Positions 13,873 through 24,873 of a DNA stretch of 60,479 nt are shown piece by piece. Numbering within the stretch: position 1 is the stretch's first letter; each line of letters opens with the position of its first letter. The notes below the pieces were generated by a model. The model was not told the DNA's origin, made no database searches, and saw nothing but the letters and a program-made list of their open reading frames with translations. The stretch covers positions 1 through 60,479 of the forward strand of contig CATPCJ010000247.1 of assembly GCA_955652915.1 (NCBI GenBank), read 5' to 3'. Both the position numbers and the translations under genes were made by a program. This DNA comes from an uncultured Bryobacteraceae bacterium (GTDB lineage: Bacteria; Acidobacteriota; Terriglobia; Bryobacterales; Bryobacteraceae).

Positions 13873-14820
13873 CTATTTGCTCGCGCTCCGGGAATGCAAC
13901 GGGAATCCCTGTTCGAACATTGCGTCGGCAACCTCGCGCAACTCGAAGGCTCCCGCATCCCGGAACACCCGTAGCGTGGCCCGGCTGGCAGCGCGCGCAT
14001 TGGCGAGTAGCGTTTCCGGCGGGTAGCTCTCTTCCAGTATCGTTTCCGCCTCACGCACACTATAGTGTCGCCGGAGAAATGCGCGGATGGCGGGATCGTC
14101 GACCTTCAAGAATCCCAAAATAAACCGGGGCAGGGAGCTTCCGATGGTGACTTGGAGGCGCCGGGGCATCTGGGGCCATGCGATTCGACACACCTTGGCG
14201 AAGAACGCGTGGTGGTGAACCTCGTCCTCAGCGTGGTCCGCGGCCATTTCCCGAACCGCGGGAATCACATCGTCCGCTTGGGGAATACACAAGAGGGACC
14301 CGGAGATCAGAGTTTCGGAAACGACAACAAAGAATAGCTCTACCCAGGCCCGCGCTTCCGGCTCCGCCGCGGACACAGCCGAGTGGAAAAACTCCAACCC
14401 AGGATGCCCTGACCCTCCATCGAACCGGAATCCCGTTGCAGCCTGGATCTGAAACATCAGATCGGCCGAAAAGAGAGAATGATAACCCTCATCGCAGTAA
14501 ATTTTGCGGGCGTCCAAGAGGGCGTCTTGCGGAAGGGAGAGCCCGGCAAGTCCGTCGGCCAATTTCCGCACTGTCCGATTCACCACTTCGTGCTCCAGAC
14601 GATCCGTGAAATGAAGGTACGAAAATAACTGCTGCATCAAGCCTTCCCGGACGATCTTTGGGTCGGCGGAGGCGAGAAGGGGGTGCTTTATGAACGGAGT
14701 AAGTTCCGCGGGAAAACATCCAAGCCCTTGCTGTTCAAGCTGCTGCCCCAGCAACCTCCTTGGCCTGGAGCGGACGGTGGCTCGTTGATGCCAATCCCCG
14801 AGCACCGTCTTATACTCCAC
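13873..14820 (-). CDS. AurF/CmlI-family diiron (N-)oxygenase-like protein
   Basis: Ligand-like pattern DRLEHE ... CDEGYH (ExxH) ... VSETL ... ADHAEDEVHHH (HxxxExxH). GTG start. Confidence 0.65.
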   Translation of the reverse strand: MEYKTVLGDWHQRATVRSRPRRLLGQQLEQQGLGCFPAELTPFIKHPLLASADPKIVREGLMQQLFSYLHFTDRLEHEVVNRTVRKLADGLAGLSLPQDALLDARKIYCDEGYHSLFSADLMFQIQAATGFRFDGGSGHPGLEFFHSAVSAAEPEARAWVELFFVVVSETLISGSLLCIPQADDVIPAVREMAADHAEDEVHHHAFFAKVCRIAWPQMPRRLQVTIGSSLPRFILGFLKVDDPAIRAFLRRHYSVREAETILEESYPPETLLANARAASRATLRVFRDAGAFELREVADAMFEQGFPLHSRSASK

Positions 14821-14974
14821 CGTCTTCCCCCCACCCTTTCAGCATTTTTCCGCACGCGCCGGTTTGCCAGTTCCGATTAACGCGATATAGTCTTGAATCG
14901 TATCACAATCGCCGGACAACCCAAGACGGCCCGTCAAATTGTCGCGATTTTATTTCTGGTGATACGATAAGCTG

Positions 14975-22349: not shown

Positions 22350-23257
22350 CTCCGCAGCCCATCGTCCCGGGACCTGTTTACAAGCTCGCCTGGTCCGTAC
22401 TGAAGCTTTGCCCGGAGTATAAAGCGTTCCAGGACGGCCGCTTGTCGCGGGTGGAGTATAGCGTCTTCCTCGATCGCATAGCGCCCCAATTGATCGCCGC
22501 CGGACTTCCTCCCGAAGATGTTCATTTTGCCAAGCGATATCCTCAATCGGACTCGGGCTTCGTATCCCAGACTCTGGAGCGTCTGGCCGCCCGCGGGGTG
22601 CTGCCGGAAGCGCGCTACGATTCGGACGCCTACGACGCCCTTGCCGCTTCGTTGGGCACCGATTATGATCATGGAGATTTCCGTACGTACATCTATCCCG
22701 AGGAGTCGCGCCTGCTGTTCGCGTTTGTCGACATCGTGCGGCCGAAGTCGGCGATTTTTCTCGGCTCCTACTACGGCTATTGGGCCACCGTGGCCATGAG
22801 GTCGATTGCAACAAACGGCGGCAGTATTGTTCTGGTGGATCCCGATCCGCGCGCTCAAGCTATTGCAACGCGCAACGTCGATCGTGCCGGCATGGACCAC
22901 GCGGTCGAGATTGCGATCGCGACCGGCCAGGACTATCTTCGAACGGCGCCCCGATCCTTCGACTTCGTCGTGCTCGACGCCGAGGGACCGCGCACGCACG
23001 CCGATCCGGAACAACGCGGCAAAGCCATCTACGCGCCGCTGCTGCGGCATGTGCTGCCGCACATCACGCGCGATGCGTACCTGGTCTGTCACAACATTCT
23101 GTTCGAGGACATCGCGGACTGCCCGTATTTTGACGGTGTCATCGCCCGCAATCGACAGGAACTCGGCCCCTTTCTGGAGATCGCGCGCCGCGAGTTTCCG
23201 GACTTCGTGGAATGCGCCAGCACTGAGGGGGTTGGGATCGGGCGCCGCGGTAGATGA
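22346..23257 (+). CDS. class I SAM-dependent (O-)methyltransferase-like protein
   Basis: ATG 22346 overlaps the leuS TGA (ATGA). Contains AIFLGSYYGYWATVAM...IVLVDPDP...FDFVVLDAEG. Confidence 0.6.
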   Translation: MTPQPIVPGPVYKLAWSVLKLCPEYKAFQDGRLSRVEYSVFLDRIAPQLIAAGLPPEDVHFAKRYPQSDSGFVSQTLERLAARGVLPEARYDSDAYDALAASLGTDYDHGDFRTYIYPEESRLLFAFVDIVRPKSAIFLGSYYGYWATVAMRSIATNGGSIVLVDPDPRAQAIATRNVDRAGMDHAVEIAIATGQDYLRTAPRSFDFVVLDAEGPRTHADPEQRGKAIYAPLLRHVLPHITRDAYLVCHNILFEDIADCPYFDGVIARNRQELGPFLEIARREFPDFVECASTEGVGIGRRGR

Positions 23258-24873
23258 CCAGCCCCGCCATACCGCTATTTCGCTTCGGCAATGGGGCATC
23301 CGGGGATCTGCCCAATGCGCTTCCGCTGGCGATCATGTCGGGCCTGCTGCTGTTCGACAGCGGCGAAGCGGATCACACTTTTCTTTTTCGCTGCCAGGAC
23401 CGCTACCTGACCTATAATTCCCTGTGTGGTTTTCGAACTGTGTTGTTTGTCGCCGATGACCGCCATCGCCGGCACTACGTTTCCCTGATCGCGAGACACA
23501 ACGACAACCTCCGGCTCGTCCGCCAGATCACCGGCCTGCCGCTTTCTCTCGTGCCGCAGCCGCTCTTCGTCCCGGTCGGCCTCGACACGCTCCAGGTCGC
23601 AGACGCGCCGTTTTTTGCCGCACAGCTTCACGATCCGGAAATCGCCGCATCGATCGGCAAATCAGTCCTTTTATGTAATCAGATCTCTCCCACAACTGCG
23701 CGAATTGCCGCCGGGCTCGATGCGCTCCTGGCCACTCACGGCTGCTCCCTTGGCATTGACGCGCGCGAACTGGCCGCTTTGGGTCAAGCTGCGTTCCAGT
23801 GGCACAACAAGGCTTATTACGTTCGCCGGGTTCAATCTACAACCGCGGATATACCACCGCACGCGGCAACGGCACTGTTCTCTCCCGCCGATTTCTTGGG
23901 CATGGAAACTTGGACCGATCTGGTGAGCGCATACACGCGTCGCACGGGTCATGGAGCGCCAAGCGCGCTGTACGTCAAATCGGCTTTCGATTCGGGAGGC
24001 AATGTCGCTGCCCGTCTATCCCGCGACGGGTTTGCCGCGTCGATTCGCGAGTTCCATACCGCGGTCCGCCATCATATTCTCCGCGACGGCGGCGTGGATG
24101 AGGACCTTGCGGAACTGGAGCAGGACGTCGATATCGCAACCAGCCTTCGTCCGCTAGGCGTCTCACGCGATCGGATGAAGCATTATCTAACCCTTCAGCG
24201 CGGCCGGCGCCAGGGTATCGAGATCCTGGTACAGGAAGCTATCGAAGCGCCGTCCGGCACGAAGGACCTGAATTACGAAGGCTTGGGCATCACCTGCGAT
24301 ATTGAAGGCCCCGATCGCATTGAGGTCATCGTCGCGGCAGGCCAGTTGTATCACGATCGCGAGCGCCGGCACTTTCTCGGCTCCTACGTTGACGAGGCGT
24401 TTCTTACGGAACCGCGGAACGCCCGGCTCATCGCAGAGGTCCGCTGCCTTTGCTCAATCGTTGCCCAGGACGGCTATCGCGGGCCCGTGAACTTCGACGC
24501 GCGCCGCGACCCATCCGGCGCATGGGTATTCATCTACGATTGCAATCCGCGGCTCAGCGCCGTTTATCCGGCTTTGGCCGTACGCCAGTTCCTGCTCGGC
24601 CTCGGCCACGACATCCACACTGCCGTCAGTCTCGGGTACCGCGGCGAATACGCGTGCGAGGATTATGAAGGCGCGCTGAGAGAACTCGACCGGCGAGGCG
24701 CCCTGTATCAAGCCCATGTCCGTCGCGGAGTCGTCCTGCTGCCAAACCTCGCACGGGACCACGGCTGCGACGCGCTCGTCTTGAATACCGGCCGCGAGGC
24801 GCTCGAAGAGTTCGTACGCGCACCGGTTCTCGAAACTGCTTTAGATCGGGCGCGGCCTCGGGAGCTCTTCTGA
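23254..24873 (+). CDS. ATP-grasp-fold protein (putative amino-acid ligase)
   Basis: ATGA overlap with the upstream gene. Contains LYVKSAFDSGGNVAARL and GPVNFDARRDPSGAWVFIYDCNPRLS (ATP-grasp ExN-like motif). Confidence 0.5.
   Translation: MTSPAIPLFRFGNGASGDLPNALPLAIMSGLLLFDSGEADHTFLFRCQDRYLTYNSLCGFRTVLFVADDRHRRHYVSLIARHNDNLRLVRQITGLPLSLVPQPLFVPVGLDTLQVADAPFFAAQLHDPEIAASIGKSVLLCNQISPTTARIAAGLDALLATHGCSLGIDARELAALGQAAFQWHNKAYYVRRVQSTTADIPPHAATALFSPADFLGMETWTDLVSAYTRRTGHGAPSALYVKSAFDSGGNVAARLSRDGFAASIREFHTAVRHHILRDGGVDEDLAELEQDVDIATSLRPLGVSRDRMKHYLTLQRGRRQGIEILVQEAIEAPSGTKDLNYEGLGITCDIEGPDRIEVIVAAGQLYHDRERRHFLGSYVDEAFLTEPRNARLIAEVRCLCSIVAQDGYRGPVNFDARRDPSGAWVFIYDCNPRLSAVYPALAVRQFLLGLGHDIHTAVSLGYRGEYACEDYEGALRELDRRGALYQAHVRRGVVLLPNLARDHGCDALVLNTGREALEEFVRAPVLETALDRARPRELF

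Follow-up and report, generated by a model that had tools for sequence, protein, structure and literature searches.

Among the described systems closest to the locus analysed here are the two natural expansions of the genetic code, for pyrrolysine and selenocysteine. The locus lies in a 60,479-nucleotide (nt) stretch of DNA from an uncultured Bryobacteraceae bacterium of the phylum Acidobacteriota (GenBank assembly GCA_955652915.1, contig CATPCJ010000247.1), referred to below in its full length as the window. It combines a cluster of enzyme genes, one of which encodes a paralogue of leucyl-tRNA synthetase (LeuRS), with a giant tRNA-like RNA, a small open reading frame (ORF) rich in CCA codons and an array of short repeats complementary to a loop of that RNA. 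The presence of RNA, synthetase, CCA-rich ORF and docking array in one place suggests a private translation system and not an ordinary small-molecule pathway.

The pyrrolysine cassette (pylT-pylS-pylBCD) unites in one transferable locus a dedicated tRNA, its synthetase and the biosynthetic enzymes of the amino acid, of which PylC is an ATP-grasp ligase. At the level of genes, the locus described here likewise holds a tRNA-like RNA, a synthetase and candidate genes for amino-acid biosynthesis. The biosynthetic and encoding modules are separable in both cases, since one relative of the present locus (L015, see below) consists of the enzyme module only, a modularity like that of pylBCD versus pylTS. 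However, pyrrolysine recodes the stop codon UAG with a small tRNA, whereas here the codon would be the sense codon CCA and the RNA is ∼ 190 nt long; the synthetase is derived from a class Ia LeuRS and not PylRS, no enzyme is homologous to PylB or PylD, and the target gene and the mRNA docking array belong to the cassette. The selenocysteine system (tRNASec, SelA/SepSecS, the selenocysteine insertion sequence (SECIS) and SelB) offers a parallel in its aberrant tRNA, in the pyridoxal phosphate (PLP)-dependent enzyme of its pathway and in the mRNA element that steers recoding to particular transcripts. In that system, however, SECIS acts through a protein (SelB or SBP2), whereas the sequences reported here point to direct pairing between mRNA and tRNA-like RNA at two to five tandem sites in the 3′ untranslated region (UTR), a sense codon is involved, and the cassette encodes no special elongation factor. 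Homologues of SelA and SelB were not detected in it.

Deliberate mistranslation in Streptomyces also relies on a synthetase paralogue, ProRSx, encoded next to an anomalous tRNA, tRNAProX (PMC10404621). There, too, the anticodon is mismatched to the amino-acid family of the synthetase and a sense codon is purposely read 'wrongly', but what is inserted is the standard amino acid proline, proteome-wide, by a tRNA of normal size (PMC10404621), and the system itself has no tailoring enzymes, dedicated target ORF or docking array. Transfer-messenger RNA (tmRNA) resembles the RNA of the present locus as a large molecule with a tRNA-like acceptor and T-arm module that is tied to a short reading frame. 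It differs in lacking an anticodon arm, in carrying its ORF internally, in its need for SmpB and in being charged by AlaRS, whereas the ORF of the present locus lies downstream of the RNA as a cistron in its own right, with a separate ribosome-binding site. In several natural-product and related systems, class I synthetase-like enzymes (Spb40/Tri28, VlmL, LeuRS-I, LeuRS2) are paralogues recruited beside N-oxygenases or tailoring enzymes, and in archaeal LeuRS-I the CP1 domain is disrupted and the C-terminus divergent (PMC9437257), as in the protein described below. The MetRS-like hydrazine synthetases among such enzymes, however, are tRNA-independent and fused to a cupin domain, VlmL is a normal SerRS acting on normal tRNASer, and none of Spb40/Tri28, VlmL and LeuRS-I/LeuRS2 is accompanied by a dedicated RNA, an ORF with biased codon use or docking repeats. 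Finally, an ATP-grasp ligase together with a gamma-glutamyl cyclotransferase (GGCT) fold is the signature of a transient gamma-glutamyl protecting group on an amino acid, either free or bound to a carrier, as in butirosin biosynthesis (BtrJ/BtrG). The window encodes a pair with the same folds, and BesA of the ethynylserine (Bes) pathway is among the structural matches of its ATP-grasp protein; the likeness is at the level of fold only (12–18% identity), so that gamma-glutamyl chemistry here would be an analogy, and the carrier in those pathways is an acyl carrier protein or there is none. Each of these analogues shares one or two features with the locus, and the combination is found in none of them. 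Our literature search returned no description of the RNA, of the LeuRS clade in this context or of the docking array, although most subscription journals were outside that search and prior work may exist.

The RNA, the small ORF and the sequences between them and the enzyme genes are arranged in the window as follows:

13151..13341 (+), giant tRNA-like RNA of 191 nt, single copy in the window (covariance model R1, 171 bits, E 2e-48)
13226..13237 (+), putative docking loop UCCAGGGUAUCA, on a covarying hairpin inside the D-loop insertion of the RNA
13451..13461 (+), Shine-Dalgarno (SD) sequence AAAGGAGGUGA, 7 nt upstream of the start of the small ORF
13469..13777 (+), small ORF (102 codons) with a high content of Ala, Val and Pro (from sequence and codon statistics)
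13795..13835 (+), three tandem docking repeats, GAAACCCUGGA, GAAACCCUGGA and AUUACCCUGGA, complementary to the RNA loop
13839..13865 (no strand), GC-rich hairpin GGGCGCCG...CGGCGCCC, read from the sequence, between the convergent small-ORF unit and AurF-like gene

The RNA gene came to light through clustering of ORFs across related loci, as a conserved short peptide (..MRVRIPSGAP) that turned out to be the translation of a tRNA T arm and CCA end. Its 7-bp acceptor stem (GCACCCG/CAGGUGC in the window) is followed by G73 and CCA, and the tertiary nucleotides of canonical tRNA are present (U8, A14, A15 with the pair A15-U48, and G18G19). The D stem is GCUU/AAAG, and an insertion of ∼ 135 nt occupies the D loop after G18G19. 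The anticodon stem-loop of the window copy is CCAGU-UUUGGGA-ACUGG, with the anticodon UGG at 13299-13301 followed by G37; the consensus loop, YUUGGGN, comprises U33, an invariant UGG and G37, on a 5-bp stem that covaries. The variable loop has 5 nt and ends in U48, and the T arm is GCGGG-UUCGAAU-CCCGU (consensus GCGGG-UUCGARU-CCCGY). Folding of 24 sequences with RNAalifold yielded a cloverleaf in which 96.6% of the cells are paired, compared with ∼ 40% in slid controls.

The covariance model finds 44 copies of this RNA at 127–177 bits, and its 3′ 60 nt are recovered by blastn at 84–97% identity in about 25 loci from all phyla concerned, with two copies in Eremiobacterota. All copies are 185–198 nt long, start with GCACCYGUAGCUUAA and end with CRGGUGCGCCA; a few of the genes do not encode the CCA, which is also true of some ordinary tRNA genes. 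The cloverleaf and the conserved nucleotides are thus those of a canonical tRNA, whereas the length lies outside the 70–95 nt range and tRNA finders do not recognize the molecule: ARAGORN called no tRNA in the window and miscalled one of 29 copies, and no tRNA in Rfam matched the RNA region at E<=1. tmRNA (RF00023) was rejected as an identification, since it scores 12.4 bits against a gathering cut-off of 47, on the T arm only, and an anticodon arm is present. A simple promoter scan revealed no sigma-70 promoter upstream of the RNA. The CCA bias of the adjacent ORF suggests, indirectly, that the RNA may be a tRNA-like decoder of CCA that would be aminoacylated and used by the ribosome. Five metagenomic loci (L041, L046, L052, L054 and L068) hold a divergent sub-family in which the RNA has A73 or U73 where the others have G73; in the three of them whose downstream sequence was examined, the small ORFs have only 4–5 CCA codons, several in an AAPD repeat, and the LeuRS-like neighbour in L046 is only 34% identical.

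The small ORF begins 19–259 nt downstream of each RNA copy, is preceded in nearly all loci by a perfect AAAGGAGGUGA SD sequence and is 76–143 codons long, with many Ala, Val and Pro codons in all loci. In the window, an N-terminal helical region is followed by [A/V]-Pro-[A/V/T/L/P] repeats, and CCA makes up 11 of its 13 proline codons (85%), compared with 12% across 23 further ORFs of the window and 11% across the genes of the cluster (binomial P 4e-10; 1e-5 to 1e-42 in the other loci). Across 26 small ORFs CCA accounts for 62–100% of the proline codons, versus 0–22% in the adjacent core genes, while other four-fold codon families of the small ORFs show little or no comparable bias towards A-ending codons. 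The use of CCA also follows a grammar. CCA-CCA does not occur in any of the 26 small ORFs (and once in one metagenomic ORF), 72 of the 77 non-CCA proline codons stand directly after a CCA, and the residue that precedes CCA is nearly always A, V, I, L or M, with any third base. Differences between orthologues at third positions are about twice as frequent as non-coding sequence would show. Taken together, the bias, the grammar and the third-position differences are evidence for translation of the ORF and for a distinction, within it, between CCA and the codons CCG and CCC; such a grammar would make sense if decoding had two outcomes. An attenuation leader peptide was also considered and rejected, since the ORF exceeds the length of such a peptide, is mostly located downstream of the enzyme genes and contains no consecutive CCA codons. 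Five Eremiobacterota loci (L008, L012, L024, L032 and L033) contain two tandem units of RNA, small ORF and repeats, with two small ORFs of different sequence families, one of which has repeats like AVPRS[AT]PTLVA; one cassette may therefore serve several peptides.

The repeats that follow the small ORF were first seen as weak minus-strand matches of the covariance model just past the small ORFs. They are the reverse complement of the invariant loop UCCAGGGCAUCA in the RNA insertion and occur in 25 of 26 loci, as 2–5 tandem copies with a period of 13–15 nt. In the window, the ACCCUGGA cores are at 13799-13806, 13812-13819 and 13827-13834; ACCCTGGA is found seven times in the window versus 1.2 expected, three of these being the repeats and one the loop itself on the opposite strand. 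The CCAGGG of the loop is invariant in all 24 aligned RNAs, and the hairpin that carries it shows compensatory changes at all five stem pairs. For 97 repeat sites the mean contiguous duplex with the loop of their own RNA is 11 bp. Where the loop is CCAGGGU (four loci: the window, L003, L005 and L011), 16 of 16 sites have ACCCUGG, and where it is CCAGGGC, GCCCUGG is found at 77 of 81 sites, so that a C:G pair is swapped for U:A in the loci with the U-containing loop. A second compensatory pair, in a metagenomic lineage, combines the loop UCAGGG with CCCUGA repeats. Pairing of the mRNA repeats with the RNA loop is thus well supported by covariation at two positions. The GC-rich hairpin just past the repeats (13839-13865) is probably a bidirectional terminator; a terminator scan did not report it, because it has no T run.

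The protein expected to charge the RNA belongs to a LeuRS-like clade of 696–803 residues, named 'class I tRNA ligase family protein' at NCBI, whose members are found in Acidobacteriota, Eremiobacterota, Myxococcota, Planctomycetota and Alpha- and Betaproteobacteria, the latter including Burkholderia pseudomallei (370 sequences in one cluster), a Ralstonia megaplasmid and Paraburkholderia. An exact-sequence look-up of the window protein returned no identical record. True LeuRSs are only 34–38% identical to it, and its score against the bacterial leuS family TIGR00396 (leuS_bact), 520.9 bits, is below the cut-off of 548.4 and so fails to identify it as a housekeeping LeuRS. When 20 clade members were aligned with 12 canonical LeuRSs, all 20 proved to have retained the HIGH and KMSKS motifs (as HLGH and KMSKT in the window protein), and the pocket motif FPYPSG was replaced in every clade member by a PPFA[NT]G-like motif (PPFANG in the window). 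The threonine-rich editing motif TTRPDT is lost in all 20 (FVAHPS in the window), and the editing aspartate of AHDxRD in most (AHLRAD in the window, where canonical enzymes have AHDQRD). The region after KMSKS has 169–216 residues, compared with 237–248 in the canonical LeuRSs, and since it is ∼ 45 residues shorter the C-terminal tRNA-binding domain is missing. Both a housekeeping leuS and an immunity copy were rejected as identifications on the grounds of the lost editing site, the absent C-terminal domain and the changed pocket motif. These sequence features suggest an active adenylating and aminoacylating enzyme with an altered substrate pocket and no proofreading, and the loss of editing would suit a synthetase that handles a non-standard amino acid. 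The view that this synthetase paralogue has a dedicated, non-housekeeping role, with tRNA chemistry at the centre of the locus, is supported.

The enzyme genes next to the small ORF are the following:

13873..14820 (-), AurF-like diiron oxygenase, core gene (PF11583, E 1.8e-17)
14975..15814 (+), class I S-adenosylmethionine-dependent methyltransferase, not a conserved partner and possibly specific to the window (Pfam)
15826..16752 (+), 308-aa protein of no known family, not a conserved partner
16774..17916 (+), alanine racemase-family PLP enzyme, accessory of an acidobacterial sub-clade (TIGR00492, 265 bits, cut-off 168)
18050..19276 (+), class-V PLP enzyme (Aminotran_5), core gene (Pfam/NCBIfam)
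19273..19986 (+), gamma-glutamyl cyclotransferase-fold protein, 237 aa (AlphaFold2 model, Foldseek)
19998..22349 (+), LeuRS-like class Ia synthetase paralogue, core gene (TIGR00396, 520.9 bits, cut-off 548.4)
22346..23257 (+), COMT/CCoAOMT-like methyltransferase (Methyltransf_24), core gene (Pfam)
23254..24873 (+), ATP-grasp ligase of a rare family, 539 aa, core gene (AlphaFold2 model, Foldseek)

The ATP-grasp family is tiny (83 proteins in 5.8 billion) and is for that reason a specific marker of the cluster. A scan of 185,579 species genomes with this family gave 29 loci, with which the window proteins were then compared by tblastn. Five genes, those for the AurF-like, class-V PLP, LeuRS-like, COMT-like and ATP-grasp proteins, form a rare core that recurs, beyond chance, in over 20 independent loci spread across six or more phyla. 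The LeuRS-like gene is present in 19 of the 29 loci, and the RNA accompanies it in all but two of these (the exceptions are L016, a degenerate locus, and L026, a truncated one); four loci without the LeuRS-like gene (L014, L015, L021 and L027) are likewise without the RNA. When the LeuRS-like protein was taken as the starting point, the same core was recovered around its gene in B. pseudomallei and in an acidobacterial genome. A pattern derived from the RNA alone, which matched all 29 known copies, retrieved 33 metagenomic stretches, and the enzymes, the CCA-rich ORF and the repeats are found in most of those with enough flanking sequence. The linkage of the parts is therefore tight and was reached from three independent starting points. 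The class-V PLP enzyme is 65–82% identical across phyla, compared with 26–66% for its cluster partners. Two gene fusions, of the LeuRS-like protein with the COMT-like methyltransferase (P0026) and of the ATP-grasp protein with AurF (P0146), tie the enzymes functionally to the synthetase.

All nine ORFs of the cluster are at the coordinates that had been given for them. The + strand genes are separated by gaps of 11, 21, 133 and 11 nt or share 4-nt ATGA start/stop overlaps, of which there are three (19273-19276, 22346-22349 and 23254-23257). The original prediction of eight co-directional, closely spaced genes with a divergent AurF gene thus stands as an arrangement, and its description as an operon-like locus free of non-ribosomal peptide synthetase and polyketide synthase genes is supported; the locus is conserved across bacterial phyla. 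The eight-gene operon as the functional unit is not supported. No related locus contains a homologue of the class I methyltransferase or of the 308-aa protein (tblastn), and both were excluded as cluster members, while the alanine racemase and the GGCT-fold protein accompany the synthetase in an acidobacterial sub-clade only (the window, L006, L035 and the P0003 contig). The locus had therefore been drawn too wide by two unrelated genes and too narrow by 13151-13865, which hold the RNA, the small ORF and the repeats. Recurrent accessories elsewhere are a DOT1-like methyltransferase, a GGACT protein, TauD, a Cys_Met_Meta_PP enzyme and FMN_bind_2.

Two of the related loci show parts of the system in isolation. 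In L015 (Oscillatoria sp. SIO1A7, 6727-11572), the AurF, methyltransferase, PLP and ATP-grasp genes form a compact stand-alone operon of four genes; the synthetase, the RNA and the small ORF are all absent from it, and the flanking genes (UbiD, NYN, caspase-like) are unrelated. In L016 (7824-12700), the LeuRS-like and ATP-grasp genes are present and the AurF gene, the methyltransferase gene and the RNA are absent; the docking motif is matched there by minus-strand fragments only, a normal tRNA-Lys is encoded close by, and the locus has probably decayed from a complete cassette. In the closest relative of the window, L035, a YcaO-TfuA pair (thioamide-forming) and IS110-family transposase genes (12361-14008, -) interrupt the cluster between the LeuRS-like gene and the PLP, methyltransferase and ATP-grasp genes. 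The YcaO/TfuA pair was seen in L035 only and was rejected as part of the core.

With regard to the individual enzymes, Pfam and NCBIfam agree with the predicted AurF/CmlI-type oxygenase, methyltransferases, alanine racemase, class-V PLP enzyme and LeuRS-like protein. The AurF-like protein scores 63.9 bits against PF11583, above the gathering cut-off of 29.6, and the iron-ligand motifs ExxH ... HxxxExxH can be read in its translation. Its PDB matches to AurF and CmlI are weak (E 0.004–0.008), and 22.6 bits against the 4-aminobenzoate N-oxygenase family NF045603 (cut-off 620) do not make it an orthologue of that enzyme. The nearest solved relatives of the class-V PLP enzyme are LolT, Egt2 and the C-S lyase C-DES; given these lyase and cyclase types and a SufS-subfamily score of 91.8 bits versus a cut-off of 475, a cysteine desulfurase (SufS/IscS/NifS) was rejected. 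The ATP-grasp-like and GGCT-like calls were both missed by Pfam and were borne out by AlphaFold2 models built on homologue alignments. For the 539-aa protein (predicted local distance difference test (pLDDT) score of 92), no curated ATP-grasp sequence family matched in Pfam or NCBIfam and phmmer against PDB gave nothing usable, whereas Foldseek returned 355 PDB structures at E<=0.001, of which the best are the ATP-grasp peptide ligases 8ynd and PGM1 (3wvq/3wvr), followed by BesA (E 1e-13 to 1e-9). For the 237-aa protein (pLDDT 88.5), again with no match in Pfam or NCBIfam and nothing usable from phmmer against PDB, Foldseek identified human GGCT (3cry/2rbh, E 9e-5, root-mean-square deviation 2.8 Å), and YGSN at residues 51-54 fits the N-terminal YGS[LN] motif. 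This GGCT-fold family has only 14 proteins and shows no BLAST similarity to the Burkholderia GGACT protein; it fills the role held in proteobacterial versions by the PF06094 GGACT protein. For the 308-aa protein, no match was found in Pfam, NCBIfam or PDB (phmmer).

We regard it as an evenly balanced proposition that the locus is a self-contained cassette for private decoding, made up of an enzyme module and a delivery module. The AurF-like oxygenase, the class-V PLP enzyme, the COMT-like methyltransferase and the ATP-grasp ligase, usually joined by a cyclotransferase of the GGCT/GGACT fold, would make or tailor an unusual amino acid, and the ATP-grasp/cyclotransferase pair would probably add and later remove a protecting group of the gamma-glutamyl type, as BtrJ/BtrG and BesA do. 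In the delivery module, the LeuRS-derived synthetase would charge the dedicated ∼ 190-nt RNA, which with its UGG anticodon would read the CCA codons of the adjacent small ORF, and pairing of the 2–5 sites in the 3′ UTR with the loop of the D-loop insertion would concentrate the special tRNA on one transcript. CCA would then have a different meaning on the small-ORF mRNA than in the rest of the proteome; ordinary genes of the window use CCA for 12% of their prolines, so that unrestricted recoding would be costly. The product would be a short Ala/Val-rich peptide with 10–25 copies of the special residue. That the synthetase charges the 190-nt tRNA(UGG) with a non-standard residue made by the cluster, and that CCA is reassigned on that mRNA alone through tethering at the 3′ UTR, we consider a tentative proposal, somewhat short of even. 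That the RNA, the CCA-rich ORF and the repeats travel with the cluster points to a peptide system linked to the ribosome, and not solely to the free small-molecule product of the original prediction. Because the enzyme module can work alone, as in L015, a free metabolite that is made first and loaded later is favoured, although for some of the enzymes the substrate could be the aminoacyl group once it is bound to the tRNA, the RNA as such or the completed peptide.

Several points weigh against private decoding. That the RNA is charged, with an unusual amino acid, is deduced from sequence; we know of no tRNA passing through the ribosome with an insertion of ∼ 135 nt at its elbow, and such an insertion may clash with the A-site finger or with L5 or L1 contacts. 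The cassette encodes no elongation factor of its own, the host tRNAPro(UGG) would compete at CCA, and G35/G36 might allow the host ProRS to charge the RNA. Evolution of the small ORF is fast, and since nonsynonymous changes in it are at least as frequent as synonymous ones, constraint on the peptide is weak except at the CCA positions. Alternatively, it could be the RNA or the completed peptide that the enzymes modify; tRNA is the substrate of the diiron enzyme MiaE and of the COMT-like enzyme TrmR.

The alternative that survives best, although we think it unlikely, is an updated form of the main idea of the original prediction, a non-ribosomal tRNA-dependent pathway in which the LeuRS-like enzyme loads the giant RNA as a mere aminoacyl carrier or donor and the ATP-grasp ligase or another enzyme transfers the group to a small molecule or to a peptide scaffold encoded by the small ORF, on the model of VlmL/VlmA (valanimycin), PEARL or the PGM1-type ATP-grasp ligases. 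The best structural matches of the ATP-grasp protein, which are peptide ligases including PGM1 (3wvq/3wvr) and also BesA, fit such a pathway, as does the existence of the four-enzyme module without the RNA in L015; an N-oxygenase combined with class I synthetase-like chemistry is known from MetRS-like hydrazine synthetases (PMC2922099, PMC12376268), and the giant insertion could be a handle for recruiting enzymes, with no need for tolerance by the ribosome. A mere carrier, however, leaves unexplained the invariable UGG with U33 and G37, the 62–100% share of CCA among the proline codons in every phylum with its 'never CCA-CCA' grammar, and the docking of several RNA copies on the mRNA. Furthermore, a LanB-like, Fem-like or GNAT transferase is absent among the window genes and the conserved neighbours (Pfam/NCBIfam and neighbourhood comparisons).

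More doubtful is a system akin to the ribosomally synthesized and post-translationally modified peptides, with the RNA as an extra tRNAPro(UGG) charged by the host ProRS and with the enzymes, including the LeuRS-like one, modifying the peptide after translation; the mobile cassette would bring a helper tRNA for a CCA-rich precursor into high-GC hosts that are short of it. Phages and mobile elements do carry tRNAs that fit their own codon use, tRNAPro has the same anticodon loop (UGG, G37), CCA is almost missing from the neighbouring genes of many hosts (0–5%), and the small ORF with its leader-like N-terminal helix and repetitive core resembles a precursor. Yet a rare codon would have been retained in more than 50 lineages without need, whereas drift to CCG would end the dependence on the helper, and the strict order of CCA before CCG or CCC in Pro-Pro pairs (72 of 77) indicates that these codons are not interchangeable. 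The bacterial ProRS elements A73 and G72 are missing from the acceptor end (G1-C72, G73), the docking array and the 135-nt insertion would be superfluous, and a dedicated, editing-free synthetase with intact catalytic motifs would have no substrate RNA.

It is improbable that the RNA and the repeats are a regulatory device, a T-box-like or sponge riboregulator of the small ORF or the operon beside enzymes that make an unrelated metabolite. The well-supported pairing between mRNA and tRNA-like RNA is what such a device would need, T-box leaders hold tRNAs by multiple contacts, and the CCAG within the invariant loop could also compete with the anticodon stem; nevertheless, the repeats lie past the stop codon and not in a leader, with the probable terminator next, there is no match to the T-box or another riboswitch in Rfam, and the codon bias and the dedicated synthetase would be left unexplained. 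Barely credible is the proposal of the original prediction that the protein is a self-immunity copy of LeuRS against a LeuRS inhibitor made by the cluster (AgnB2-type), which has in its favour only a LeuRS-derived protein inside a biosynthetic-looking cluster and the cited precedent, and against it a whole clade with a destroyed editing site, no C-terminal tRNA-binding domain and an altered pocket motif, a score below the leuS family cut-off, the methyltransferase fusion in one lineage (P0026) and the constant pairing of the synthetase with its own odd RNA.

If private decoding were confirmed, the locus would represent a third natural route to genetic-code expansion after selenocysteine and pyrrolysine, the first on a sense codon and the first to use tethering between mRNA and tRNA, in which the new meaning of a codon is confined to one mRNA by a physically tethered dedicated tRNA. 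It would also show that tRNAs can bear a large functional insertion, define a new class of ribosomal natural products and provide synthetic biology with a naturally orthogonal synthetase/tRNA pair for a sense codon with built-in targeting. Should the ribosomal step be wrong, the ∼ 190-nt RNA, its covarying docking array and its strict link to a LeuRS paralogue would still amount to a family of RNAs and an RNA-RNA interaction not described before. Culturable organisms carry the system, among them the pathogen B. pseudomallei and the plant pathogen Ralstonia solanacearum, which makes it experimentally tractable now.

Among the other genes of the window, five consecutive co-directional ORFs (311, 375, 217, 240 and 546 aa, some of them overlapping) at 6983-12010 (-) form an uncharacterised operon that ends shortly before the RNA gene; Pfam matched none of the five at E<=0.001. 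Directly past the ATP-grasp gene are an extracytoplasmic function (ECF)-type sigma factor with DUF6596 (25932-27200, +) and, after it, a MotB/MotA-like pair (27208-28908, -); no tie of these neighbours to the cluster was observed in other loci. Copper-related genes adjoin the cassette in two relatives. On the R. solanacearum megaplasmid (L034, 14216-19488) these are copper-resistance and CusA/CzcA efflux genes, and in an acidobacterial genome (L003, 19810-21039) a multicopper oxidase gene is close to the cassette, which could be a coincidence or a hint of a metal-related role of the peptide.

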